Below are positions 5,725 to 64,000 of a stretch of 64,000 bases of DNA, piece by piece. The notes beneath the pieces are model-generated. The model searched no databases and was not told where the DNA came from. It saw nothing but the letters and a program-made list of their open reading frames with translations. The first letter of the stretch is position 1, and each line of letters begins with the position of its first letter. Origin of the DNA: an uncultured Candidatus Saccharibacteria bacterium (lineage in GTDB: Bacteria > Patescibacteriota > Minisyncoccia > Phycocordibacterales > UBA2135); NCBI GenBank assembly GCA_964348495.1, contig CAYGCZ010000001.1:7951-71950 (forward strand), read 5' to 3'. The position numbers and the translations under genes were made by a program.

Positions 5725-9381
<3,657 letters not shown>

Positions 9382-9387
9382 TACGGT

Positions 9388-11220
9388 GTGAAGCGGCGGT
9401 TTTCGCAGAGCGAAAACCGCCGCTTCGGCCGGATGTTCCGGTCGCGTCGCGTTAGTTACCCCTTGTTACCTGTGTCTTCACCCGTTGAACAGATCAAAGC
9501 CAAGCTCAACATCGCCGATGTGATCGGTTCGTATGTGAAGCTGGATCGGGCGGGTGCCAATTACAAAGCGTGCTGTCCGTTCCATCGCGAAAAGACCCCC
9601 TCATTCTTCATTTCTCCCGATCGGGGGACATTCCATTGTTTCGGATGCGACAGAGGAGGAGATCTCTTCACCTTCGTCCAAGACATGGAGGGGATCGATT
9701 TTCTCGGTGCTCTGAAAATGCTCGCTGAACGAGCGGGTGTGACTCTGCGAGAATCTCGCCCCGAGGAACGCAAAGAGCGGGATCGTCTTTTTGCCGTCAT
9801 GGACGCGGCGGCGCTCTATTATCGGACGGTGCTTGTTCGTTCTCCCGAGGTAGCCGCCTACCTTTCCGGGCGCGGCCTTACGGCAGAGACGATTGCCGAC
9901 TTTCGGATCGGCTATGCGCCCGACGAGTGGCGTTCCGTCTCGACCTTCCTCGCCGAAAAGGGGTTTTCGGTGGCGGATATGGAAAAGGCGGGACTCGTTA
10001 TCGTCAAAGGTCCAGGTTCGCACTACGATCGCTTTCGTGGCAGGGTTATGTTTCCGATTATGGATACCGCAGGGCGGGTGATCGCCTTTTCGGGGCGGGT
10101 CTTCGGCGACACATCAGCCGATACAGCCAAGTACATCAACAGTCCCGAGACGGAGATCTATCGCAAATCCGCCGTACTCTACGGATTGGACAAAGCAAAG
10201 GGTGCTATCCGATCTCTCGGATGTTGTGTGCTCGTCGAGGGCCAGGTTGATGTGATCATGGCCCATCAGGCGGGCACGAAGCACGCCGTCGCCTCATCGG
10301 GAACCGCTCTGACACCCGAGCATGTTGCCATGATCGGTCGGCTGACCGACACCATCATCATGTCGTTCGACGGCGATGCGGCGGGGATCAGCGCATCCGG
10401 CCGCGCAGTCAATCTTGCCGCCGGACATGGCTTGGACATTCGCCTCGTCGCCTTGCCGCAAGGAGCCGACCCTGCCGATATTGTGCGTGCCGATCCTGAG
10501 CAGTGGCGCGCATCGGTCGCCTCCGCCGTACCGGTCGTGGACTTCTATCTCGCCATCCTGCGCCGCCTCCATGACGACGACCGCGAGTATCGCAAAGCCG
10601 TGGAGCGTACCGCACTGCCGTATATTGCCCACATAAAGAGCAAGATCGACCAGGCGCAGAGCGTTGCCCGGATCGCGCGGGCGCTCGGAGTTACGGAGGA
10701 ACCGGTATGGGAGGAGTTTCGCAAGGTGCTCGCCGCCGGTACTGCTGCGAACACATCACCCCAACAACCCCATCCTGCCAGTGCGGGGATCCCGACACCT
10801 GTCGTATCGCACGCATCGACGAGGATGGCACGACTCGAGGATTTGATCATCGGGCATATTCTCGCGGAAGGGGAATCGTCGTCTCGCGTCTCCGGACTCG
10901 CCGAGGAATTTATGCGAGTAACGGGAACGGCAGTATCTTCGCGCATCGCCCTCAAGGAGGAACATGAACGCGAACGGGTGCGTTTCGAGGCGGAGGCGCA
11001 TTTCGGAACGGGCGAATCGGCTTCCGTTCCCGTTTTCGAGGCGCTTCTTAATCTTGAGGAACAGATCTTGCGTTCAAGACTCGCGGCACTGGGCGACGAG
11101 GTGCGCCGCGCCGAGGCGGATTCGGATACGGAGAAGGTGCGTGTCCTTGTAGAATCCTTTGCCGGCGTGACGGGGGCGATCAGTACCCTCACTGCCCGCA
11201 AAAAAGCACTATCTCAATAA
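9388..11220 (+). CDS. dnaG: DNA primase
   Basis: CHC2 zinc finger [31 protein letters not shown] and a TOPRIM region [16 protein letters not shown]...SFDGDAAG. The true start may be the GTG near 9472, where [14 protein letters not shown] matches typical primase N-termini. Confidence 0.9.
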
Positions 11221-12568: not shown

Positions 12569-12587
12569 TCCATGCATAATCTTGAAA

Positions 12588-12626
12588 AGAACCCCGCTGT
12601 ATTTCTGGAAAGGGGTTCTTTTTTCT
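12588..12626 (+). terminator. rho-independent terminator after rpoD
   Basis: Stem agaacccc/ggggttct followed by ttttttc. Confidence 0.55.
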
Positions 12627-12677
12627 TTGGATTCGTGGTATACCTCTTGAAGATACATCTACAACAGGAGAACTGCG

Positions 12678-18551: not shown

Positions 18552-18570
18552 GACACACCTCCGTTTGGGT

Positions 18571-18693
18571 TTATTAGCGACGTAGAGCGAGTGAAATGAG
18601 AAAACGAAGCGAAGCGGAGTTTTCTCATTTCCGAGCCGAGGAGCTAATATGGGTTCAATACCTCGGGGCTCTGCCCCGAGGGACTATATTGCA
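18571..18693. repeat. Repeat family B copy 1 (~123 bp)
   Basis: About 85% identical to 55824..55947. It has internal IR atgagaaaac...gttttctcat and a perfect hairpin cctcggggc-tct-gccccgagg. Confidence 0.85.
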
Positions 18694-38657: not shown

Positions 38658-39395
38658 TTGATTTTTTTACAAATTTCGTATACACTTGCTCGTATGAGCA
38701 TGTATATACGAAAAATTAAAGAACTGCGTACAGAAAAAGGTCTGAGTCAAGCACAGGTTGCGGGGGCCATTGGCGTATCACGCCCAACTTACACCGCCAT
38801 TGAGGCAGGCAAACAAAAACTTGATCTTGATGAGGCGCAGAAGCTCGCCAGTCTCTTGGGTATTGATGTTTCAATGCTCGTCTCAGGTACTGTTCCCGAC
38901 ATGGAAAAGTACAAACAGATGATCCTTGCCTACCTGCGTATGGATCTCTCATCAAAAAAAGATGGTAAGGTTCCCAAGACAAAACTGGCAAAGCTCCTCT
39001 ATCTAGCTGACTTCGCATGGTTCTACGAGCATTTGGAAAGTATGAGTGGTATGCAGTATCGCAAAATTAATTATGGCCCGGTTCCCGATCTCTTTTTTCG
39101 CGCGCTTGATGAGATGGAGGAGGGGGGTAAGATCATTGTCGATCGAAAGCCAGATGATAACGGTCGTCCGATGTTTTTGATCAGTGAGGCGGATAGTAAT
39201 AGGAATGAACAAACCCGCCTCCTTTCCAAAGAGGAACAGAAGCTCATGATCACTATCGCCAAAAAGTGGAAAGATAAAAAAACAATCGATATCGTTAACT
39301 TTACGCACAACCAGTTACCCTACGCGCTATGCAGGGGGGATGAGTTGATACCGTATGAGCTGATCACGCAAGAGGATCCTGATAAGGTGTATTGA
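38658..39395 (+). CDS. HTH (XRE-family) fused to Panacea/DUF4065 (SocA-like) antitoxin domain
   Basis: HTH LSQAQVAGAIGVSRPTYTAIEAGK. DUF4065-like KLAKLLYLADFAWFYEH...YRKINYGPVPD. A more likely start is ATG 38694 or 38700. The region is AT-rich. Confidence 0.7.
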   Translation: MIFLQISYTLARMSMYIRKIKELRTEKGLSQAQVAGAIGVSRPTYTAIEAGKQKLDLDEAQKLASLLGIDVSMLVSGTVPDMEKYKQMILAYLRMDLSSKKDGKVPKTKLAKLLYLADFAWFYEHLESMSGMQYRKINYGPVPDLFFRALDEMEEGGKIIVDRKPDDNGRPMFLISEADSNRNEQTRLLSKEEQKLMITIAKKWKDKKTIDIVNFTHNQLPYALCRGDELIPYELITQEDPDKVY

Positions 39396-39799
39396 TTATG
39401 GAAGGGAATTATTCGGTGCGGATTGAACATTTTGCAGAGGGTCATTTTATCAAGAGCTTTCGCAAAAAATATCATGCGGCATGGGAGGTGACATGGCGCG
39501 CCATTGATGCACAGTTGGCTCGTATTGACGCGTTGTTGGAGACGGAAAAAGCAGATCACATCGTCGGTGATGATGCGATAAAGATTATAAAAACACAATT
39601 CAAAATCGCCGGTACGCAAGAATCGACCAAAAGTTCAGGTAATCGTTGTATTGTGGCATGGCACACAGATGAACGATATGTGGTTGTGTTGTTGGTGTAT
39701 GGAAAGACGGATTTAAGCGGAAAACATGAGACGGCAGAATGGCAAGGAATCGTGAAAAAGAATTATCCTCAGTATAGGCGACTGTTTAACGGGTGCTAA
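39392..39799 (+). CDS. unknown 135-aa protein translationally coupled to the Panacea gene (candidate toxin)
   Basis: ATGA overlap with the upstream gene. No confident family; the C-terminal beta-rich segment CIVAWHTDERYVVVLLVYGKTD is faintly RelE/ParE-like. Confidence 0.4.
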   Translation: MIMEGNYSVRIEHFAEGHFIKSFRKKYHAAWEVTWRAIDAQLARIDALLETEKADHIVGDDAIKIIKTQFKIAGTQESTKSSGNRCIVAWHTDERYVVVLLVYGKTDLSGKHETAEWQGIVKKNYPQYRRLFNGC

Positions 39800-52612: not shown

Positions 52613-52755
52613 GGGGACACCTCGCTTTTTTTAGGTTCTGGCTAACACTAACATGAGATAGGTAACACAGTACTGCCATAAGTATAGCAAACTATTTTTC
52701 AGAGAGTGGGGGTGGTGTAGATATCCGGGGATGGCGAGGTGACGGTGCGAATGTC

Positions 52756-52764
52756 TGCTATACT
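52756..52764 (+). promoter_or_regulatory. extended -10 promoter (TGcTATACT) 6 nt before the ATG, giving a leaderless mRNA
   Basis: tctgctatactgtcggtATG. The identical arrangement is found at 54240-54248. Confidence 0.45.
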
Positions 52765-52770
52765 GTCGGT

Positions 52771-53484
52771 ATGAACACATATAACAACAAGTACATCATT
52801 GCGGGGGTTGTTATTGTTTTTATTACCGTTGCGGGGATCTTATCGGTGCGCGGTGAACAAAAGGCGCCCGTTGCTCTGTCACCGGAGCGGGTATACACCG
52901 ATACAGAATATGACTACCACATTACCTATCCTGCAGATTGGCAGGTGAGCACCACGACACTCTTGATCAATTCTGGTGAGGCGGTTGTCGTGTTTCCTGC
53001 GGAACTCGTCGCCTTTCCAGAATGTCAGCAGAGGTTTGAAAAACTGCTTGAAAATCATAAGCAATACAATCCTATCGTTTCGGAAGCAAGCATCTACGAC
53101 AGCGCCCGTGCCGAATCGTGCAGTATTGGCATTACAACGTACAAAAATCCTCAGCATCTCTCAATCAAGGATTTCTTGCAAGATGGTTTTATGCGCGGTA
53201 CGGCATATCAGCAAGCCGATCTTGACCTCATTGCCACACTCACCACGGAGAAGACCGGCAGAGGTGAGGAAGTACTCTCCGATACGGCGTTCTATCTCCA
53301 CGGCTTTGGCGGAGGATATGATGGCGAGGTCGTCCCGGGCGTTATTGTGGGAAAACAGCAATTTATTATTGCGCATAATGATACGATTCTTTTTGTGCAC
53401 AACTCTATCAACCCCACCGATGCAACACTTCCCGGCAGTCACGATATTTTTGAAAAACTAATCAAAAGTATCACCTTCAATTAA
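52771..53484 (+). CDS. membrane-anchored secreted protein, paralog A (YNNKYIIAGVVIVFI N-terminus)
   Basis: N-terminal signal-anchor shared with 54255..54824, followed by YDYHITYPADW. Confidence 0.55.
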   Translation: MNTYNNKYIIAGVVIVFITVAGILSVRGEQKAPVALSPERVYTDTEYDYHITYPADWQVSTTTLLINSGEAVVVFPAELVAFPECQQRFEKLLENHKQYNPIVSEASIYDSARAESCSIGITTYKNPQHLSIKDFLQDGFMRGTAYQQADLDLIATLTTEKTGRGEEVLSDTAFYLHGFGGGYDGEVVPGVIVGKQQFIIAHNDTILFVHNSINPTDATLPGSHDIFEKLIKSITFN

Positions 53485-53519
53485 AAAAAGCCCGCGATAC
53501 TCGCGGGCTTTTACTGGTG

Positions 53520-54071
53520 TCACCAATAGTAATTCAGGTTTGAAGGATCAAGGAAGTACTCGGGGTAGGCAGGATCTCCTCCGCATGAAGTATTTTCAGG
53601 AAGTCGACCCCTGTTGGCGATATTGGAGTAAGAAGTATTTCGCACTCCAAAATGAAGATGGGATCCTCCACTATGGTTGTTCACCTCTCCTATCTTTTGT
53701 CCCATGGATACCGATTGTCCGTAACTCACGACTGGTTTGATGTGATGATAGGTGCTCGTCCATGAACTGTGTGAGACGGTAACAAAGTTTCTCTCGTCAG
53801 AGGGATTGTTGTTGTATATCACAACAACCGCTATTGTCCCCGCGTATGCGCTTTCCACTTTTGTGCCGATGGGTGCGGATATATCAATCGCTGTATGAAG
53901 CTGGCGATTGCTTCCGCAATACTGGTTTTGCCAGTGTTCTCCCGGGACGGAGGTAATGATCCATGTATCGGGTAGGCCTGGCAACGGCCATTCTAGGGTG
54001 GGGATAGCCATACACACACTGCTGATAACGGCACATCCTAGAAACAAACATGCTTTTTTGAACAGTTTCAT
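53520..54071 (-). CDS. M23-family metallopeptidase (secreted), copy 1
   Basis: Signal peptide, HTAID (HxxxD) and GSHLHFGV (HxH) motifs. Confidence 0.75.
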   Translation of the reverse strand: MKLFKKACLFLGCAVISSVCMAIPTLEWPLPGLPDTWIITSVPGEHWQNQYCGSNRQLHTAIDISAPIGTKVESAYAGTIAVVVIYNNNPSDERNFVTVSHSSWTSTYHHIKPVVSYGQSVSMGQKIGEVNNHSGGSHLHFGVRNTSYSNIANRGRLPENTSCGGDPAYPEYFLDPSNLNYYW

Positions 54072-54178
54072 CTCACACCTCCTCGGTGTTTTTGGTTAAA
54101 GAACAAGAAAGAACACAACAACAAAAAACGGGGGCCATGTGCCGCGCAGAGCGCAGTACACAACCCCCGTTAGTGTTG
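54072..54178 (-). promoter_or_regulatory. conserved ~107-nt 5' leader with stem-loop, shared by both M23 genes
   Basis: Near-identical to 55441-55550. On the mRNA strand there is an aacggggg...cccccgtt stem, then ccaaaaacaccgaggaggtgtgagATG. Confidence 0.55.
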
Positions 54179-54239
54179 GGGGGTACTGTAGCATGAGCTA
54201 GAAATTTTTGCAAAGTTGAGATAAAAAAGTGTGGCAATC

Positions 54240-54248
54240 TGCTATACT
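54240..54248 (+). promoter_or_regulatory. extended -10 promoter, leaderless arrangement
   Basis: tctgctatactggcgatATG. Confidence 0.45.
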
Positions 54249-54254
54249 GGCGAT

Positions 54255-54824
54255 ATGAAAAAATATAACAACAAGTACATCATCGCTGGGGTTGTTATTG
54301 TTTTTATTGTCGTGGCAGGCGTGTTGCTCGCGCGTGGCGGGGGTGATGAAGGAGTATGGAAAGCACATTCTGAAATAGTTGACGCCACCCATACAAAATA
54401 TATCAACGAAACCCTTGGTTTTTCATTGGTATATCCCTCTGATGTATATCTGGATGATGATGCGCGCCGTCGATCGGTCATCGTCACGACGCTCGCTCCT
54501 GATGATTCGTTGCGGAGAACCGATGCGTTCATCCTGAATTCTCTGCATATCGCACTGCATTCAGAAACAGACTATGCGACATTCGTGCGAGACTATCAAA
54601 CTCGCTCAAGAGAAAAGGATACCTACCCTGACATGATTCTTACGGAAACGCATGTTGCAACATTTCCTGCGGTCCGTGTCAGTTATACAGATCCGTTTTC
54701 CGGTAGTCCCGCACTCCTTTTTATAGTCAATGGAGTACAAGGGGTTTTTACCGTGAGTTATTTTGTCGATGCTGACAACGCCGAAATATATGAAAAGATA
54801 CTCGATGACATGATCCGCCTCTAA
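54255..54824 (+). CDS. membrane-anchored secreted protein, paralog B
   Basis: MKKYNNKYIIAGVVIVFIVVAGVLL...GFSLVYPSDVY. The ATG at 54255 lies inside the ORF 54231..54824. Confidence 0.55.
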   Translation: MKKYNNKYIIAGVVIVFIVVAGVLLARGGGDEGVWKAHSEIVDATHTKYINETLGFSLVYPSDVYLDDDARRRSVIVTTLAPDDSLRRTDAFILNSLHIALHSETDYATFVRDYQTRSREKDTYPDMILTETHVATFPAVRVSYTDPFSGSPALLFIVNGVQGVFTVSYFVDADNAEIYEKILDDMIRL

Positions 54825-54879
54825 TTTTTGAGAGACACTAAAAAACGGCTCTGCGTAGTGCAGGGCCGTTTGCGCTCCA

Positions 54880-55440
54880 TTAATTAGGATTGTTTTCGTA
54901 TTGAAGCGACATCGGATTTATAAAAGAACTCGGGAATGCGGGATAACCACCACAAGCAGTTTGTGGTAATGCTCCTACATTGGAGGCGTTTGAATATGCC
55001 GCCTCTCGGACACCAAAATGAAAATGAGTGCCACTTGCAAGGTATCCCACATACCCAATGAGTGATCCTTTATTCACCCACGTATTTGCTGATACAGCCG
55101 GGTTAATGTGCCAATAGACCGTCGTCAATAAGAAGGTGTGTGTCGGTGCATGGTCTATCGTTACAAAACCGACCCATGTTGAGTTGGTCTGTGCCACTTT
55201 TACCCATCCGTCATATGCGGCATATACCGGCTCACCAACGTATGACTCAACATCAACGCCCGTATGTTTTTTAACAAGTCCGTTGCAGTATCCCTCATAC
55301 CAATTACTACCAAAGGAGTAGCCGGTAACAGTCCTATTTTTGATATTTCCTGAAACCGGCGACTCTAGCGTCCATGCCGATGCAATGGTTGTGGAAAATA
55401 CAAGGACAAGAGCGACAACAATTTTTGAAAGAACATTCAT
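54880..55440 (-). CDS. M23-family metallopeptidase (secreted), copy 2
   Basis: HTGVD and GTHFHFGV motifs, with the C-terminal ACGGYPAFP resembling copy 1. Confidence 0.75.
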   Translation of the reverse strand: MNVLSKIVVALVLVFSTTIASAWTLESPVSGNIKNRTVTGYSFGSNWYEGYCNGLVKKHTGVDVESYVGEPVYAAYDGWVKVAQTNSTWVGFVTIDHAPTHTFLLTTVYWHINPAVSANTWVNKGSLIGYVGYLASGTHFHFGVREAAYSNASNVGALPQTACGGYPAFPSSFINPMSLQYENNPN

Positions 55441-55550
55441 CTCACACCCCCTCGGTGTTTTTGGCTAAAGAACAAGAAAGAACACAACAACAAAAACGGG
55501 GGCCGTGTACTCCGCGCCGAAGCGTTTCGTACACAACCCCCGTTAGTGTT
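55441..55550 (-). promoter_or_regulatory. second copy of the conserved M23 5' leader
   Basis: See 54072-54178. Confidence 0.55.
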
Positions 55551-55602
55551 GAGACTAGAGTAACATAGGGGAGGGGTGGGTGCAATGCTCTGTATGGTAA
55601 AT

Positions 55603-55795: not shown

Positions 55796-55829
55796 GGCCA
55801 CCATCAAGAAGATGGTGGCCTTTTTTATT
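55796..55829 (+). terminator. intrinsic terminator
   Basis: ggccaccatc-aagaa-gatggtggcc followed by ttttttatt. Confidence 0.8.
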
Positions 55830-55947
55830 AGCAGCATAGAGCGAGTGAGATGAGAAAACGAAGCGAAACTGAGTTTTCTCATTTCCGAGCCGAGGAGCTA
55901 CTATAGGTTCACTACCGCGCGGCTCTGCCCCGAGGGACTATATTACA
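55824..55947. repeat. Repeat family B copy 2
   Basis: About 85% identical to 18571..18693. The terminal hairpin is degenerate in this copy. Confidence 0.85.
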
Positions 55948-57798: not shown

Positions 57799-58593
57799 GT
57801 GCATAATAAAGACATGCGGGCGTTTCTTGTTGAGTTCTGGAGTTTCTTTGTCGCCAATCTGCGGGCGACGTATTTTGGCGTCTTTCTCCTCGCCATATTC
57901 TTGGCGACTGAGTTTGTTACCGTGCCGTTTATAAGCCGCTACGACCTCATTTTTCTTTCCGCGGTCGCTTTCCAGATTGTGGCTTTGGTGTTTCGGTTTG
58001 AACGGTTGCGAGAGTTTTTTGTGATCATCATCTTCCACTTCTTGGCGACGATCATGGAACTGTTCAAAACACATCCCGCAATCGGCTCATGGACCTATCC
58101 GGGGGTGGGGGAAGCGGTCTTCGTCATCGGCACTGTGCCGCTCTTCGCCGGTTTCCTCTACTCCGCGGTCGGAAGTTTTATCTCGCGCGCCTTTGTCTTT
58201 CTCAAACTCTCCTATGAGCGCTTTCCCGCGTATAGCCACGTATGGGTGCTTGCGACACTTATCTATCTCAATTTTTTCACGCACCATTTTTTCTACGACA
58301 TACGGTACCTCTTGTTTGCATACATCGCCGTCATCTTTTGGCGTACGACGGTACATTTTCAGGTATCTGCAAAGCGGCGCAGTATGCCCTTTTTGGCAGC
58401 CGCTTTTTTCACCGCGCTGTTTGTCTGGGTCGCGGAGAATGTGAGCACCTTCACGCATATCTGGCTCTATCCAAGCCAGCTTTCCGGCTGGCACCTCGTC
58501 TCCCCGGAAAAAATCGGCTCATGGTTCCTCTTACTCATCTTGAGCTTTGCGCTCGTGTCGCTCATATACAGGGATACGTTGAAAAGGGGGTAG
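57799..58593 (+). CDS. DUF817-like polytopic membrane protein
   Basis: About 8 TM segments. Its last 28 codons lie within the 88-bp direct repeat. Confidence 0.55.
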   Translation: MHNKDMRAFLVEFWSFFVANLRATYFGVFLLAIFLATEFVTVPFISRYDLIFLSAVAFQIVALVFRFERLREFFVIIIFHFLATIMELFKTHPAIGSWTYPGVGEAVFVIGTVPLFAGFLYSAVGSFISRAFVFLKLSYERFPAYSHVWVLATLIYLNFFTHHFFYDIRYLLFAYIAVIFWRTTVHFQVSAKRRSMPFLAAAFFTALFVWVAENVSTFTHIWLYPSQLSGWHLVSPEKIGSWFLLLILSFALVSLIYRDTLKRG

Positions 58594-58600
58594 GGGGGTG
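58513..58600 (+). repeat. 88-bp direct repeat, left copy (3' end of the DUF817 gene)
   Basis: About 94% identical to 61250..61337. Confidence 0.9.
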
Positions 58601-58662
58601 GCGCGCACTGTAGAGAGATGGATAAAAAAAGATCGCCTTGAGGAAGGCGATCGTATGTAATC

Positions 58663-59739
58663 TTATACACAAAGGAGGCGGCGTAGCGAGGTAATCGACA
58701 TAGTATCGATATTCTTAACGACAGTATCGCGCATCTTCGGAAAAATACTTCCATGCAGCGCGAACTCCTTTCGTCCTGACAGCGCCGACCACAACAAGGC
58801 GTTTGTGATGCGTACAGAACCAAAACGTTCAACAGACTGCCCTATGGTTACCACACCATGAATGGGGATGAAAGATACTTTTGGAAGGCAGTAGATATGT
58901 GTCGGCACAGGTACTTCGATGAGTGCTGAGACGGCCGAGAGTATTGCCGCTTGATGAAGTATCGACGTGCCGACCACGAGGTGTGTGAGGATGTATTTTT
59001 TTTCAGAAAGCCATTTTGAAAAAAACCACCACACCAAATCATTGTCGATATTCCAATCATATCCGCCAAGTCGCACACTATGTCTTCGGGGGGTACTGCG
59101 CGAAATCAAAAGTCTTGCTCCTGCGAGTTTTTTCATCTTCGCCTCAAATTCTCGCGCGGCCCATGAAGGGAATACTTTTGGCGTGGAGGGTTTCGGCAAT
59201 GGCGCTGTAACAAGCACCTGTTTGCGAATTTTTATGATACGCGTATGGCAACACATCGAGTATCCCTCATGTACGAGCGTCTTGGAACCGTACAAATCGA
59301 TACCATCAAAGTATTCGATCATACCGCATGAACATCGACGAATATTGCGAGTTTCTACGCCGATCAAATTCTTCTTAAAGAGGGTTTGCAACAAAGTACT
59401 CATGGAGTTGTGGTCGATAGTTTCATCGTTCCATCGGACATTCGGTTGTATACCAAGAATATCCAACGTACTCTCCATGAGATGAATAGTCGATACATCC
59501 GCACTCTTTCCAAGGGTGTTTAATGCCGCTATCGTCTGCATATTCTCTGTCATACCGAGATGGTAAACAAAGGAAAATAAGCTGTAGAACCCGGGCTTTT
59601 TTGCATGGGATGGAGATACGGGAAGCGTGGTTGCCACTGGAATCATCGGAATGTCTCCTTTGTGATTGTCGTCTGTGGACGATGGTAGCACATGGTAGAC
59701 GCTACGGGAAGTACAACAAGGAACCTCAACCAATCTCAC
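58663..59739 (-). CDS. hypothetical protein with C-x-C...CC cluster (unknown family)
   Basis: 358 aa. 14-nt overlap with the upstream NTase gene. It has HLGM...KMKKL, which faintly echoes class-I aaRS HIGH/KMSKS motifs, but this is not trusted. Confidence 0.4.
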   Translation of the reverse strand: MRLVEVPCCTSRSVYHVLPSSTDDNHKGDIPMIPVATTLPVSPSHAKKPGFYSLFSFVYHLGMTENMQTIAALNTLGKSADVSTIHLMESTLDILGIQPNVRWNDETIDHNSMSTLLQTLFKKNLIGVETRNIRRCSCGMIEYFDGIDLYGSKTLVHEGYSMCCHTRIIKIRKQVLVTAPLPKPSTPKVFPSWAAREFEAKMKKLAGARLLISRSTPRRHSVRLGGYDWNIDNDLVWWFFSKWLSEKKYILTHLVVGTSILHQAAILSAVSALIEVPVPTHIYCLPKVSFIPIHGVVTIGQSVERFGSVRITNALLWSALSGRKEFALHGSIFPKMRDTVVKNIDTMSITSLRRLLCV

Positions 59740-61243
59740 TAAGTAATGCGCGGAGACGCGGTCGCACGAGTCTGCGATCTTTGTGAAGTGAGAGGTGTCC
59801 TGTGGGAATCTCCTCCAGACGGATTCCCGTGGAGGCGCAGAATGTCGTTGTTGTATCGGGCGGTATGGTTTTGTCGTAGGTACCCGTTACAATGGAATAT
59901 TTCTTCGCGTTGATTGATTTGTCATCCATGAACCTGGAAAGATCGAGCCACTTGCCGGTTAGTAATTTTTCCCAATCGGTGGTGGTGCAACGATATGCCA
60001 TAGGGAAGGTTGTCTCAAGGTACGCAAAGAGAGTTTCCACTTTTGGTACGTCAGACATTCTCAGGGGAGGTGAGAGGGCGATAACGTGCGCTATTGCCTC
60101 ATCAAAACCGGCACAGAGTGCAACCAGTCCGCCAAAACTTGCTCCAATGACCACAACCTTGTCGTACGCGGCCATGTTTGTGTCGTGAAGAGCAATACCA
60201 TCTTTGAGCCCATGCGCCAAATCTATAACATCGCGTGTCGGATCGTGATCAAGAAACACCCCTGCCGACTCCCATGTTCCTGTAAGTCGTGGAAAAAATG
60301 CGGCATACCCCCACGAGGCGAGGACGGCAAGAAATTCCGAGAGCTCCGGTTTGCGCGGCAACCCGTCCAAGACGATTATTGCCGTTGATGTCGGTTTCTC
60401 GGGGAGGAGGTATTCACAAACAATACCCTTATAGGTCATCCGCGACGGAGAGCGGCTCGTGCCGGGAAGCATTGATTGTGCTGAAAAAAGCGCGACCGTA
60501 TATATTTTTTCATACAGCGCCATAAAGATCGCGATATCATCGGGCGTTCTTTCGGTAAGGATGCGCCAATCTTCCTCATTGAGTACGTCGGGAAAACATC
60601 GTCTGAATACTTTTGATATATCTGAAGTGTTTGCGGTTATTTTTGACAGGTCTTCTCCGATAAGGAGCAGCAGATCAAGCATTACTCGTTCTATGTGTTT
60701 TGCATGATATTCGGGATTTCGATCTTTATTATGTCTCCCACCGCCCAGATACTCTTGTCGCGCTTGAAAGACATATCGTTGTATGCGATTGATCAAACTG
60801 GTAATCACCACGTCTTCACGCGGAGCGTCTTTTGCAAAAGGATTTTTGCCGTAGAGGGGGGTTGCCTCAGCAAGAATATGTATAAAAAACGCACCGTGAG
60901 CATCAAGCGAAAACAAGTCGGGAAAAGAAGATTCTTCAGGATAGAACAGCTGTAGGTCAAGTGTTTGCTCGGAGTATTTTTGTTGTATTGTTTGAAGATC
61001 GGAGAGGTCGTCTAGGGGAGAGGTTTTCTCCTTGATCAATACAACCATATCCAGGTCCCAAAATGTCTCATTAACCCGGGAGCTTCCATAGAGCAATACC
61101 GCGTCGAGGCGAGCACCAAACAACGTCACTATTTCTCGTGATATTTCTTCCGCGATTGTTGGAATTGGGGGCTTGGTAAGCATAGTACGTATGGTACAGT
61201 AAACCCGTTTGTTTTTAAACATTTGATAGATTGCACCAGCCAA
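59726..61243 (-). CDS. Pol-beta-type nucleotidyltransferase domain fused to alpha/beta-hydrolase domain
   Basis: NTase motif LLYGSSRVNETFWDLDMVV (GS...DxD). Hydrolase motifs VVIGASFGG (GxSxG), later Asp, and C-terminal GHLSLH. Confidence 0.7.
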   Translation of the reverse strand: MAGAIYQMFKNKRVYCTIRTMLTKPPIPTIAEEISREIVTLFGARLDAVLLYGSSRVNETFWDLDMVVLIKEKTSPLDDLSDLQTIQQKYSEQTLDLQLFYPEESSFPDLFSLDAHGAFFIHILAEATPLYGKNPFAKDAPREDVVITSLINRIQRYVFQARQEYLGGGRHNKDRNPEYHAKHIERVMLDLLLLIGEDLSKITANTSDISKVFRRCFPDVLNEEDWRILTERTPDDIAIFMALYEKIYTVALFSAQSMLPGTSRSPSRMTYKGIVCEYLLPEKPTSTAIIVLDGLPRKPELSEFLAVLASWGYAAFFPRLTGTWESAGVFLDHDPTRDVIDLAHGLKDGIALHDTNMAAYDKVVVIGASFGGLVALCAGFDEAIAHVIALSPPLRMSDVPKVETLFAYLETTFPMAYRCTTTDWEKLLTGKWLDLSRFMDDKSINAKKYSIVTGTYDKTIPPDTTTTFCASTGIRLEEIPTGHLSLHKDRRLVRPRLRALLSEIG

Positions 61244-61249
61244 GTCAAG

Positions 61250-61337
61250 ATCGGCTCATGGTTCCTCTTACTCATCTTGAGCTTTGCGCTCGTGTCGCTC
61301 ATATATAGGGATACGTTGCGGAGGGGGTAGGGGGGTG
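61250..61337 (+). repeat. 88-bp direct repeat, right copy (orphan duplicate of the DUF817 3' end)
   Basis: Encodes ...IGSWFLLLILSFALVSLIYRDTLRRG* with no upstream gene body. Confidence 0.9.
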
Positions 61338-61358
61338 AATCCTGTCATAGAGTGGCGA

Positions 61359-61829
61359 CTAATTCAGCATCCAAATGGAATAATTGAGATATGCAGCAAA
61401 ACTGACCCAGAGAATATAGGGTACGAGAAGCCATGCGGCAGGTTTTGAGATTTTTGCAAAGGCGATGATCGTGGCGAGGATAGCGAGCCAGAGGAATACG
61501 ATCTCAATAAGCGCACCGACGGGGGAGTGGAGACCAAAAAAGATGATTGACCACAGCGTGTTCAAAACCAACTGACCGAGAAAAATACCGAGTGCAATTT
61601 TTTCATCTCTGCGATCGAGCCCCTTCTTCCAAACGAGGAATGCCGCAATGCCCATAAGCGCAAAGAGTGTCGTCCAGACCGGCCCAAACACCCACGCCGG
61701 AGGATTGAGGATCGGCTTAACTAATGTTGCATACCAACCGGCAATAGACGGCGCGGTAAACACCGAGCCGATGATGCCGGCCAGCTCGGAGACTACAATG
61801 GCGATGATAAGTTTAACTGTAGTGTGCAT
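61359..61829 (-). CDS. tspO: TspO/MBR (tryptophan-rich sensory protein) family
   Basis: WYATLVKPILNPPAWVFGPVWTTLFALMGIAAFLVW with 5 TM segments. The start was taken at ATG 61829. Confidence 0.88.
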   Translation of the reverse strand: MHTTVKLIIAIVVSELAGIIGSVFTAPSIAGWYATLVKPILNPPAWVFGPVWTTLFALMGIAAFLVWKKGLDRRDEKIALGIFLGQLVLNTLWSIIFFGLHSPVGALIEIVFLWLAILATIIAFAKISKPAAWLLVPYILWVSFAAYLNYSIWMLN

Positions 61830-61948
61830 ATAAATAGATACCTTTTTTACTATAAAAAAGTATATCATTTTTTAGTATTCAAAAGTTCATGAGGTCAACT
61901 CAAAACGCATGATAAAACGTGGAGTACAACTTAATAATTGAATAAGAA

Positions 61949-62668
61949 TTATTGCTGATGTTTTTTCCATGATTCAATCTTACTATTGAGGGTTTCAAGA
62001 ATACTATCAAAAATAATATCGGGGGCTTGTGAGGCGTCTATACTGACTATTCTTTCTGTTATTTCAAGTGGTAATCTCTTGCGAGCATTATAAAAAATAT
62101 CATATGAATCTTCTATTAATTTCCTTCTGAATTCAAGTTTAGGATCGGCAGGATCAAGTCTTCCCAATATAACTTCTTTTTCTGCGGTTAATTCAAAAAT
62201 AACATCGGGCAAAATATCGTCGAGGATAATCTTTTCTCCACGCTGGATAGGATAAAGATCTGAAATTAAAAGTATGTCATTAGCTGGATTATCTCTATCT
62301 ATTACAAATGATGCTCTTGATAAAAGAGACCGATCCAGAAGTGCGACTTGCTTATTAAGTACCCGTGCTTTCATTCGCCACTCCTTCATCTCTGTAACAA
62401 GTTTATATGCAGCCTCATGCCATTCTTCTGTGGTGCCTTGCTTACGAATTTTTTTGGCGTTCTCTTGCCACCAGATGTCAAATGGATCACCGTCGTGTGA
62501 ACCAGTGCCTTCTCGAGTACCATCTCCGCGTAACTCAACAAAATCAACATCGAGTTCTTTGAAAACTTTTTTTAGAAGATCTATCTGTGTTCCCTTTCCG
62601 ACACGATTAATACCTTCAAATGCTATGGTAGAAAGATCATTTGATTGATTCCTGAAACTTTCTTTCAT
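61949..62668 (-). CDS. thymidylate-kinase-like (dNMP kinase fold) protein with atypical P-loop
   Basis: AFEGINRVGKGTQ, versus the Tmk consensus IEGIDGAGKST. The gene is AT-rich. Confidence 0.55.
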   Translation of the reverse strand: MKESFRNQSNDLSTIAFEGINRVGKGTQIDLLKKVFKELDVDFVELRGDGTREGTGSHDGDPFDIWWQENAKKIRKQGTTEEWHEAAYKLVTEMKEWRMKARVLNKQVALLDRSLLSRASFVIDRDNPANDILLISDLYPIQRGEKIILDDILPDVIFELTAEKEVILGRLDPADPKLEFRRKLIEDSYDIFYNARKRLPLEITERIVSIDASQAPDIIFDSILETLNSKIESWKKHQQ

Positions 62669-63059
62669 AAGCGTTTTTTATTACATCGGAGGTCTTTGGT
62701 GTGAATTCCATATTTTCCATATTTTCTATAGTCATCCACGAAACTTCCTCCGTATCTTCTAAAGCTTTCGGTTCTCCTGATTCATAATCTGCAGTATAGA
62801 CGATGTAGACCATTCCATATATTTCTTTTTCTTTTATATTATTCTGAATCACGCAAAAGTTTTTTATTTTTATGCCAACCTCTTCCATAACTTCACGCTC
62901 TAACGCAGACTCTAGGTTCTGATCGCTCATATCTACCGTTCCGCCGGGAATACCCCATAATCCAGGAAAAACATCTTCCTTCATTGATCTTTTAACAATA
63001 AGCACCTTATCGTTATTGAAAATTACTACTGATACGTTAACTTTGAAAAATTTTGCCAT
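62637..63059 (-). CDS. NUDIX hydrolase
   Basis: Nudix box GGTVDMSDQNLESALEREVMEEVGI. It overlaps the Tmk-like gene by 32 nt. The start was taken at ATG 63059. Confidence 0.85.
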   Translation of the reverse strand: MAKFFKVNVSVVIFNNDKVLIVKRSMKEDVFPGLWGIPGGTVDMSDQNLESALEREVMEEVGIKIKNFCVIQNNIKEKEIYGMVYIVYTADYESGEPKALEDTEEVSWMTIENMENMEFTPKTSDVIKNAYERKFQESIK

Positions 63060-63063
63060 ACGC

Positions 63064-64000
63064 TTATATTTTAAATGTCTGTTCATTTTCTTCTATTGAA
63101 GATAGAAACATACTTGAAATTATTTTAGTGGTTAATAATTGATTCTCGATAAGAGTATTGCTTTGAGTATCATTTGCAAGGAATTTCTTGAAAATAATAT
63201 ATCGGGAAGTCTCATTCTGACCGAGATATTGAGGTAGGTCGGCATGATACTTATGATATATTTCTTGAACAAAGTTCCTAGTATCGAAAGATTTACCTCC
63301 AATCAACTTATTATTTCTAAAGAGGTTAATCTCTTGATGTTCTATGCCACCTACATCATATTTCGAATGTTCATCAACCCTTGCTGATTGATATGAGTGA
63401 AGCTGAATATTGAATAGCGGACCGATATGTAAATTAATATACTCATGCCTAAGACGACCATTCCCTTTATAGGTGTCCTTAGGAAGATCATACCATGCAC
63501 GACCAGAGAAACCAGACTGGAGCAGGTCTAGGTGTCCGAAAGAAACCACGTTCTCTCTATTGATTGGATATTCGCCATTTCTCAAGAAAAAACGTGTATA
63601 CGAGTCAACTTCGCCCATGTACATATTGGAGGGTTCATCAGTATCCTTTTCGAATAATCGCTTAAAAAGTTCCTTGCCTCCTATCTGCCTATAGTGAGTC
63701 TGTGGTTTTATGAGCTCTGTCCTATTGGAGAGATAAAGCATGGGTAGAATTACTTTATTTGTTTCTATTATCCATGCGACAATATCAATAAAATGATATC
63801 CAGAGTGCATGATTTTCCCATAACCATATTTATAAGGGTGATTCTCTCGAGAAAGATACTCTTCAGGCATATTCCACTGACCATCAGAGTGATGAATGTT
63901 AAAGAATGTGATTGGTATACCGTACTCCTTCACAATCTTAAGAGCTTCTTCGAAGATAAAAATATACGCTGGATGTTCTCGTCGTTGGGCTAAAACATAA
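63064..64000 (-). CDS. hypothetical protein, 5'-truncated by the window edge
   Basis: The reading frame stays open to position 64000; the GTG at 63933 is only an internal candidate start. No family was recognised. The region is AT-rich. Confidence 0.4.
   Translation of the reverse strand, partial: YVLAQRREHPAYIFIFEEALKIVKEYGIPITFFNIHHSDGQWNMPEEYLSRENHPYKYGYGKIMHSGYHFIDIVAWIIETNKVILPMLYLSNRTELIKPQTHYRQIGGKELFKRLFEKDTDEPSNMYMGEVDSYTRFFLRNGEYPINRENVVSFGHLDLLQSGFSGRAWYDLPKDTYKGNGRLRHEYINLHIGPLFNIQLHSYQSARVDEHSKYDVGGIEHQEINLFRNNKLIGGKSFDTRNFVQEIYHKYHADLPQYLGQNETSRYIIFKKFLANDTQSNTLIENQLLTTKIISSMFLSSIEENEQTFKI

Follow-up and report, generated by a model that had tools for sequence, protein, structure and literature searches.

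How does the 3' end of one gene come to stand, in direct orientation, at several places downstream of the gene itself? The question is raised by a 64,000-nt stretch of DNA from an uncultured Candidatus Saccharibacteria bacterium (contig CAYGCZ010000001.1, forward-strand positions 7,951 to 71,950; called the window here), in which an intact gene for a membrane protein of the DUF817 family is followed by a second copy of its own tail. A preliminary description had read the 2.65 kb between the two copies as a site-specific integrative element that left its attachment (att) scars at either end. We found a third copy of the tail past the end of the window. With three tail copies the locus is an array and not a single bounded insertion. 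The reading we favor, to which we would give an even chance, is tandem accretion of recombinase-less islets, similar to cis-mobilisable elements (CIMEs), by Campbell-type recombination at an att site that overlaps the 3' end of the DUF817 gene. The structure is of a known kind, att-site tandem accretion being familiar from other phyla, with a host and a target that are new; its cargo is uncharacterised.

The recovered source contig (L001) reaches 7.2 kb past the window end, and window numbering carried on into it beyond position 64000 is referred to as extended coordinates. From left to right the layout is DUF817::att1 - segment A (2,646 bp) - att2 - segment B (3,461 bp) - att3 - segment C, with the following parts:

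57799..58593, plus strand: intact DUF817 membrane-protein gene, the target (Pfam PF05675, E 8.7e-78, residues 12-250; gene calls in L001 and L166)
58510..58600, plus strand: att copy 1, the functional end of the DUF817 gene (repeat search, translation)
58601..61246, minus strand: segment A, a self-contained two-gene unit between att copies 1 and 2 (repeat boundaries; GC content 0.472)
61247..61337, plus strand: att copy 2, an orphan DUF817 tail encoding ...TLRRG* (repeat search, shuffle test, translation)
61338-64798 extended (in-window 61338..64000), minus-strand operon: segment B (Pfam, gene calls, third repeat copy)
64799-64889 extended (L001 6295-6385), direct orientation: att copy 3, outside the window (repeat search)
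64893-71183 extended (L001 1-6291): segment C, right of att3, with five small or unknown open reading frames (ORFs), a 118-aa membrane protein, an HTH_17 gene and a PLD-SNF2 helicase

The repeat of copies 1 and 2, which the preliminary description had put at about 88 bp, is 91 nt long (58510-58600 and 61247-61337), direct and 95% identical, with a spacing of 2737 bp. Copy 1 comprises the final 27 codons of the DUF817 gene with its stop codon and a further 7 nt. Copy 2 proved to be an orphan gene tail, as had been supposed, and still translates to KIGSW...YRDTLRRG*. An exact core of 56 nt common to these two copies occurred at just these two places in the window and had no match in 100 shuffles. 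Copy 3 surfaced when every DUF817 locus was tested for extra copies of its own tail. It lies about 800 bp past the window end, 3552 bp from copy 2, to which it is 92% identical, and encodes the same peptide as copy 1. On L001 the three copies were located at 6295-6385, 9847-9937 and 12584-12674; identity among them is about 92-97% over 88-91 nt, and the core invariant across all three is 47 nt long. The target gene itself is full length: the Pfam model is covered from 1-237 of 237 and the C-terminus is like that of relatives. Gene callers place its start at 57814, which yields a protein of 259 aa. Copies 2 and 3 stop matching the DUF817 body at the same nucleotide (between C and AAGATCGG), and the DNA to their left is unrelated. 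This identical left boundary argues for a putative fixed site rather than random breakpoints. The copies differ at four places of the repeat (bases given for copies 1/2/3):

Position 3: A/G/G, synonymous
Position 12: A/A/G, synonymous
Position 60: C/T/T, synonymous
Positions 73-75: AAA/CGG/AAA, encoding K/R/K

The open frame is preserved in all three tails, the differences being either synonymous or K->R. By our reasoning, the mosaic of variable sites could be reproduced by two successive single crossovers inside the 47-nt core with three parental alleles, a solution that is not unique.

The same array structure is present in independent assemblies, and the NCBI, ENA and Logan assemblies have identical bases wherever they were compared. 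A Logan k=31 unitig (L002) equals window 58539-61279 with 0 mismatches over 2741 nt and ends exactly where the shared repeat core starts and stops, which is the pattern expected of a true repeat. To judge from its name (MEGAHIT, k141), the ENA contig comes from a k=141 assembly, so that single k-mers would span each 91-nt copy together with both flanks.

Segment B is clearly foreign by composition. Its GC content is 0.383 overall and 0.367 without the tspO gene at its left end, vs 0.54 for window 1-52000. The third copy places tspO inside the array, in disagreement with the earlier view of this gene as the simple far flank of the insertion.

Under the reading we favor, the last ~88-91 bp of the DUF817 gene may be an att site that has received foreign DNA repeatedly. 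In each event a circle bearing its own DUF817 tail would recombine with the resident tail by a Campbell-type single crossover, which would restore an intact DUF817 gene and leave one further orphan tail. The outcome would be a tandem array with at least two recombinase-free blocks stacked on one another. Segments A and B would be decayed cis-mobilisable islets in need of a recombinase from outside, whose gene may lie in segment C past the 6.3 kb covered or on another contig; the crossovers, the order of events and the reliance on a recombinase in trans are what we infer. Of the features of att-borne elements the locus has direct repeats of a gene tail that bound the inserts, and a reconstituted target, and it lacks an integrase of its own. 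Of those that define CIMEs and accretion it has att copies on both sides of units without integration or transfer genes, and units in tandem (att1-A-att2-B-att3). The idea of an att scar thus stands in part: the third tail that bounds a foreign block, the intact DUF817 gene and the absence of the cargo at about 145 DUF817 loci speak for it, but what had been taken for a single 2.65-kb element is one unit of an array. That segment A contains no integrase was confirmed, and the accompanying suggestion of a decayed element or one mobilised in trans fits the data.

The variability of the site was assessed in relatives. Protein-guided scans gave DUF817 loci from genomes (72) and metagenomes (80), about 145 of which were tested; some 80 are Patescibacteria with 66-77% aa identity. 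The cargo pair of segment A stood beside DUF817 in none of the about 145 loci. A second DUF817 tail was seen in 0 of the 118 loci that hold a tail, and a test of 145 loci at the DNA level revealed none in direct orientation beyond noise. In one relative (L024, 68% aa identity) DUF817 is followed by a 208-aa gene and then a convergent tspO. Three others (L033, L110 and L111) have ~3.7 kb of unrelated genes 3' of DUF817, including an HTH_17 and Doc-like pair, and then, at about 10430-10550, a C-terminal piece of tspO that stands alone (residues 140-166, 74% identity). Because the DNA 3' of DUF817 differs among these loci, the DUF817-tspO interval appears to be variable across the clade, i.e. a hotspot.

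A number of findings weigh against accretion at an att site. No integrase, recombinase or transposase turned up in segments A and B, elsewhere in the 64-kb window or over the 6.3 kb past att3, some 70 kb in all; the search covered window 19-64 kb by Pfam tables, the gene content of window 1-19 kb (genes such as trmD, rpoB, rpoC, dnaG and those of sigma factors and a UvrD-type helicase) and the 6.3 kb beyond att3. No arm-type sequences common to segments A and B were found beside the repeats above the level of shuffles. The earlier statement that segment A is AT-richer held with respect to the window mean (0.472 vs 0.523, the 9th percentile of 2.6-kb windows) and to GC at third codon positions (0.47-0.49 in the cargo vs 0.67 for DUF817). 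Its immediate neighbours, however, have equal values, with 0.474 in the 6.5 kb to the left, 0.456 in the gene of an S9 peptidase and 0.471 in tspO; GC does not fall sharply, to about 0.37, until 61870. The empty site that had been anticipated, with DUF817 directly followed by tspO, was not found in any strain-level relative: look-ups of the identical DUF817 protein found the source contig only, the closest relatives of DUF817 are no more than 66-77% identical with poorly kept synteny, and the nearest candidate, L024, has a gene in between. The linkage of tspO to DUF817 in relatives may go back to an ancestor, and this is hard to square with tspO as cargo of segment B. The six other copies of the cargo pair that we located have neither flanking repeats nor an orphan DUF817 tail, so that the pair itself is not demonstrably a mobile element, and no relatives of the pair were found on the viral contigs, phages or plasmids searched. 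Finally, the purely synonymous single-base changes (3 of 3; P about 0.01-0.02 if all changes were neutral) are weak evidence, since the branch of copy 1, which is under selection, may account for two of the three.

A rival that is hard to tell from site-specific accretion is cassette shuffling by homologous recombination with no dedicated recombinase, which we regard as unlikely. DNA of sibling strains would have been taken up, circularised or else looped out of a similar array through recombination of its tail copies, and inserted by a RecA-dependent single crossover at the 91-bp tail, the tails being mere homology anchors. The lack of a recombinase across 70 kb and the very high identity of the copies speak for this explanation. 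At 92-97% identity the donors would be very close relatives, and the core of 47-56 nt is long enough for RecA. The window carries T2SSE, T2SSF, PilM and pilin genes (a type IV pilus or competence-like apparatus), and segment B opens with a tspO convergent to the tail, as does the natural neighbour of DUF817 in L024. The mosaic of single-nucleotide polymorphisms (SNPs) is compatible with crossovers in the identical core as well. Yet homologous recombination alone does not explain how unrelated DNA was first captured at a tail cut at the same nucleotide in two segments, single crossovers are inefficient on about 50-90 bp of homology, and a donor with the order DUF817, then cargo pair, is absent among the about 145 loci. 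Because the orphan copies 2 and 3 share their left boundary, we favor a defined site.

A history in situ, in which DUF817 was tandemly duplicated twice and the extra bodies were deleted or replaced so that their 3' tails were left, appears very improbable. Orphan tails in open frame with mostly synonymous differences to copy 1 are what diverged paralogues would show. Such a history requires at least four independent events, however, including two deletions that end at the same nucleotide, and it conflicts with the lack of any other DUF817-derived sequence between the copies, with the 0 of 118 tail-bearing loci that have a second tail, and with the strongly foreign composition of segment B. An assembly artefact, by which co-existing strains that differ 3' of DUF817, or free tail-bearing circles, were chained via the shared repeat, is scarcely credible: the DNA does come from a metagenome-assembled genome, the Logan k=31 assembly does break at the repeat and a chromosome plus circles would give an identical de Bruijn graph, but the right ends of segments A and B join DUF817 in mid-frame (codon 237), which downstream strain variation cannot produce, k-mers of 141 would reach past the repeat of 91 nt into both flanks, SNPs distinguish the copies, and the NCBI, ENA and Logan assemblies are concordant, L002 without a mismatch.

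An insertion sequence or composite transposon was rejected since there is neither a transposase nor inverted repeats at the segment ends and the duplication of ~90 bp is a gene end. Rfam and tRNA scans of the extended locus gave nothing relevant, and the att core was absent from the viral contigs searched.

Segment A, the first unit of the array, makes up a whole transcription unit, from an upstream region through the gene pair to a terminator, and has these features:

59726..61183, minus strand: 485-aa fusion of a Pol-beta-type nucleotidyltransferase (NTase), a helical domain and an alpha/beta hydrolase (gene calls, profiles, alignment)
58663..59646, minus strand: 327-aa paralogue of the class I aminoacyl-tRNA synthetase (aaRS) core, similar to methionyl-tRNA synthetase (MetRS) (AlphaFold, Foldseek, profile search)
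58631..58652, minus strand: intrinsic terminator of the operon, a 9-bp stem (GATCGCCTT/AAGGCGATC) followed by T7 (terminator scan)

Gene calls of three assemblies agree on both genes, which do not overlap as the preliminary description had it and are instead 79 nt apart. The terminator is strong and lies within the segment; its RNA fold has -14 kcal/mol with a z of -2.85. The 63 nt ahead of the first gene, that of the 485-aa protein, showed no consensus promoter. A -35-like hexamer, TTGACT, lies on the minus strand upstream of this gene at window 61242-61249, where it straddles the junction of segment A and att2; a scan found no -10 at the proper spacing.

The fusion of a Pol-beta NTase to an alpha/beta hydrolase, proposed earlier from motifs, was upheld by invariant residues and profile matches. 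Its architecture, in which the helical domain is conserved, recurs in all of about 20 homologues (42-49% identity); the few that could be named by source are Patescibacteria. In the N-terminal domain G33, S34, D43, D45 and D76 are invariant in the 20 homologues, i.e. the G-S...D-x-D signature and the third acidic residue of Pol-beta nucleotidyltransferases are present. Profile matches of this domain were to the NTase-domain protein 9xbd (E 4.6e-5) and to kanamycin NTase (E 3.6e-3), while no Pfam NTase family passed. The PADLOC model PDC-S09 was matched in part, by residues 1-71 of the NTase domain (E 1.8e-6), and PADLOC reported no system match beyond that domain. With kanamycin-type and minimal nucleotidyltransferases (MNT) the protein shares the GS...DxD signature; it differs from them in being fused to a serine hydrolase. 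The hydrolase domain is a canonical alpha/beta hydrolase with a GxSFGG nucleophile elbow (S349), and the predicted catalytic triad is Ser349/Asp437/His463. An MNT-HEPN toxin-antitoxin was considered and dismissed: the sole Rx4H in the helical domain is R155...H160, and by eye its Arg is not conserved in the 20-sequence alignment.

The second cargo protein had been described as an unknown protein of 358 aa with a CxC...CC cluster. We revise it to 327 aa with the fold of a MetRS-like class I synthetase core. The AlphaFold model is of moderate confidence (pLDDT 72.6, pTM 0.75). In a Foldseek search against the PDB nearly all of the top 50 matches were MetRS, with E down to 1.4e-11 and a TMq of 0.51-0.68, MetRS catalytic cores standing at 0.57-0.68, and the aaRS-like C-terminal domain of PyrN (PDB 9l8v) was matched too. 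The protein fell into no Pfam, NCBIfam, PADLOC or PHROG family, and in sequence it matched neither PDB synthetases nor the cysteinyl-tRNA synthetase (CysRS) of the window; the assignment is one of fold. C105, C107, C132, C133 and D201/D203 are invariant in the close family, and in the model the CxC...CC cluster corresponds to a putative zinc knuckle of the MetRS type (CP-domain). As regards the HIGH and KMSKS signatures of class I synthetases, a HIGH-like H14-x-x-K17 that follows strand 1 does not vary among 5 close members, nor does R292-K293. Across 41 wider relatives the invariant residues are D201, D203 and P255 only, H14/K17 being limited to the close family. The profile search of 1.84 billion representatives returned 238 relatives, of which the few looked up were proteins of Patescibacteria. 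The protein stops after the catalytic core (327 aa vs about 500 for the MetRS targets, TMt about 0.4). Because it has no anticodon-binding domain it is a paralogue and not a bona fide synthetase. MshC and GluQRS are stand-alone class I paralogues of this sort. With such proteins, e.g. the C-terminal domain of PyrN, the 327-aa protein shares a MetRS-type Rossmann core with a zinc knuckle; from class I synthetases it differs by the missing anticodon-binding domain and by a HIGH-like motif that is not kept in the wider family.

The distribution of the pair is patchy. The two genes are adjacent in 7 of 7 lineages examined, this one and six other Patescibacteria, in a different context each time; one of these lineages is distant (36% identity, hhalign E 9e-80). 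Neither cargo protein had an NCBIfam match, the synthetase-like protein had no PADLOC match, and we found no described family that combines an NTase/alpha-beta-hydrolase fusion with a MetRS-like core. We infer that the pair is a two-enzyme ATP- or nucleotide-dependent modification or ligation system. A role in antibiotic modification, as a toxin or in defence has no specific support; for the antibiotic-modifying or toxin-type enzyme suggested earlier, nothing beyond the partial PADLOC match of the NTase domain turned up. As a conserved, wholly unannotated two-gene module the cargo is tractable for biochemistry.

Segment B contains four genes, the first three within the window:

61359-61868, minus strand: tspO (Pfam, gene calls)
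61949-62668, minus strand: thymidylate-kinase-like gene (PHROG 761, E 2.5e-9)
62637-63086, minus strand: NUDIX gene (Pfam, gene calls)
63064-64470, minus strand: gene of a GFO/IDH/MocA-like oxidoreductase of 468 aa (Pfam, gene calls)

The stretch from 61869 to 64798 extended (L001 6386-9316) is a minus-strand operon of 37% GC in a genome of 52% GC and resembles an accessory module for the modification of nucleotides or sugars.

To the right of att3, the HTH_17 protein of segment C is excisionase-like (59 aa, phrog_66, E 1.9e-11). The PLD-SNF2 helicase has 1094 aa, and metagenomes of Patescibacteria commonly contain relatives with 79-93% aa identity. One of them, in L167 (85% aa identity), is part of a prophage-like element and has a large serine recombinase and a tRNA gene close by; the order in L167 1-15091 is tRNA gene, large serine recombinase, PLD-SNF2 helicase, Eco57I-type methylase, DUF6998, terminase, ParB-methylase, S24 repressor and ThsB-TIR. 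The excisionase-like gene and the context of this helicase make it plausible that segment C belongs to a mobile element. The segment-C protein and the helicase had no relatives on the viral contigs searched.

Near att3 we noted a dispersed repeat of ~110-125 nt, 90-95% identical among window 18569-18693 (plus strand), 55824-55947 (plus strand) and L001 6450-6558 (extended 64626-64734, minus strand), the last copy being 65 nt from att3. It has internal palindromes (GAAATGAGAAAAC...GTTTTCTCATTTC; CCTCGGGGCAGAGCCCCGAGG) and no Rfam match, and could be an element like miniature inverted-repeat transposable elements or repetitive extragenic palindromes, or a regulatory element. A 109-nt inverted repeat that seemed to bracket the S9 peptidase to segment B belongs to this dispersed repeat, with its third copy at 18569-18693, and was discarded as a boundary of the array. 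Further to the left, at window 52754-55551 (L001 15633-18430), a module of ~1.4 kb is duplicated in tandem, each copy with an M23 peptidase gene and a gene of ~190 aa or ~237 aa; non-coding or N-terminal stretches of 67 and 82 nt are 88-94% identical between the copies. At window 38694-39799 (L163 8850-9955), just upstream of cysS, a protein with helix-turn-helix and SocA_Panacea domains is followed by an ORF of 133 aa, a candidate Panacea-type toxin-antitoxin pair.

In Patescibacteria, with their tiny genomes, the routes by which accessory genes are gained are poorly known. The locus offers a concrete case, at sequence level, of stacked recombinase-free islets at a putative protein-gene att. 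Neither the array nor its cargo overturns current understanding. Integron arrays have tandem genes with one recombination site per unit beside a fixed anchor, as has the locus. It differs from them in that no integron integrase was found and the repeat forms no attC-like hairpin, since shuffled sequences fold as well as it does (DNA fold z -0.5 to -1.7). Moreover, its units have their own upstream regions, segment A has its own terminator, and the repeats are near-identical copies of a gene end. It would be a bold and improbable step to see in the DUF817 tail the site of a cassette-accumulating system of the candidate phyla radiation (CPR), in which promoter-bearing cassettes, each with one copy of the gene tail, would be captured and stacked by a recombinase in trans or by transformation plus RecA, integron-like without attC hairpins or an adjacent integrase, and whose first cassette would be an undescribed pair of a tRNA-independent MetRS-like ligase and an NTase/serine-hydrolase fusion.

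Composite islands of the staphylococcal cassette chromosome (SCC) sit at the 3' end of rlmH (orfX) in staphylococci, as arrays of cassettes some of which are devoid of a recombinase (pseudo-SCC). Their units are bounded by direct repeats of the 3' end of a conserved gene, and the serine recombinase acts in trans. The SCC repeats measure about 15-20 bp, and one unit or more will normally carry ccr genes.

In the streamlined genomes of Prochlorococcus, tycheposon islands consist of integrations stacked on one another, with partial att copies left behind (bioRxiv 10.1101/2020.12.28.424599). They have in common with the locus the streamlined genome, successive integrations at one site that push older ones inward, degraded remnants and small accessory operons as cargo. 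Tycheposons use tRNA genes as targets and bring their own tyrosine or serine recombinases, whereas the locus has the tail of a protein gene as target and no recombinase was seen.

CIMEs and site-specific accretion have been defined (PMC5704250), an example being the elements related to ICESt1 at the 3' end of fda in Streptococcus thermophilus. The locus departs from such arrays of CIMEs and of integrative conjugative or mobilizable elements in its host (Patescibacteria, CPR), its target (DUF817), its repeats of ~90 bp, and in that no cognate integrase-bearing element was demonstrated and no conjugation genes lie nearby. The att cores in streptococci do not exceed a few tens of bp. What the locus has in common with these arrays is an att that includes the 3' end of a protein gene, the loss of integration and transfer genes, tandem stacking and a target gene that stays intact.

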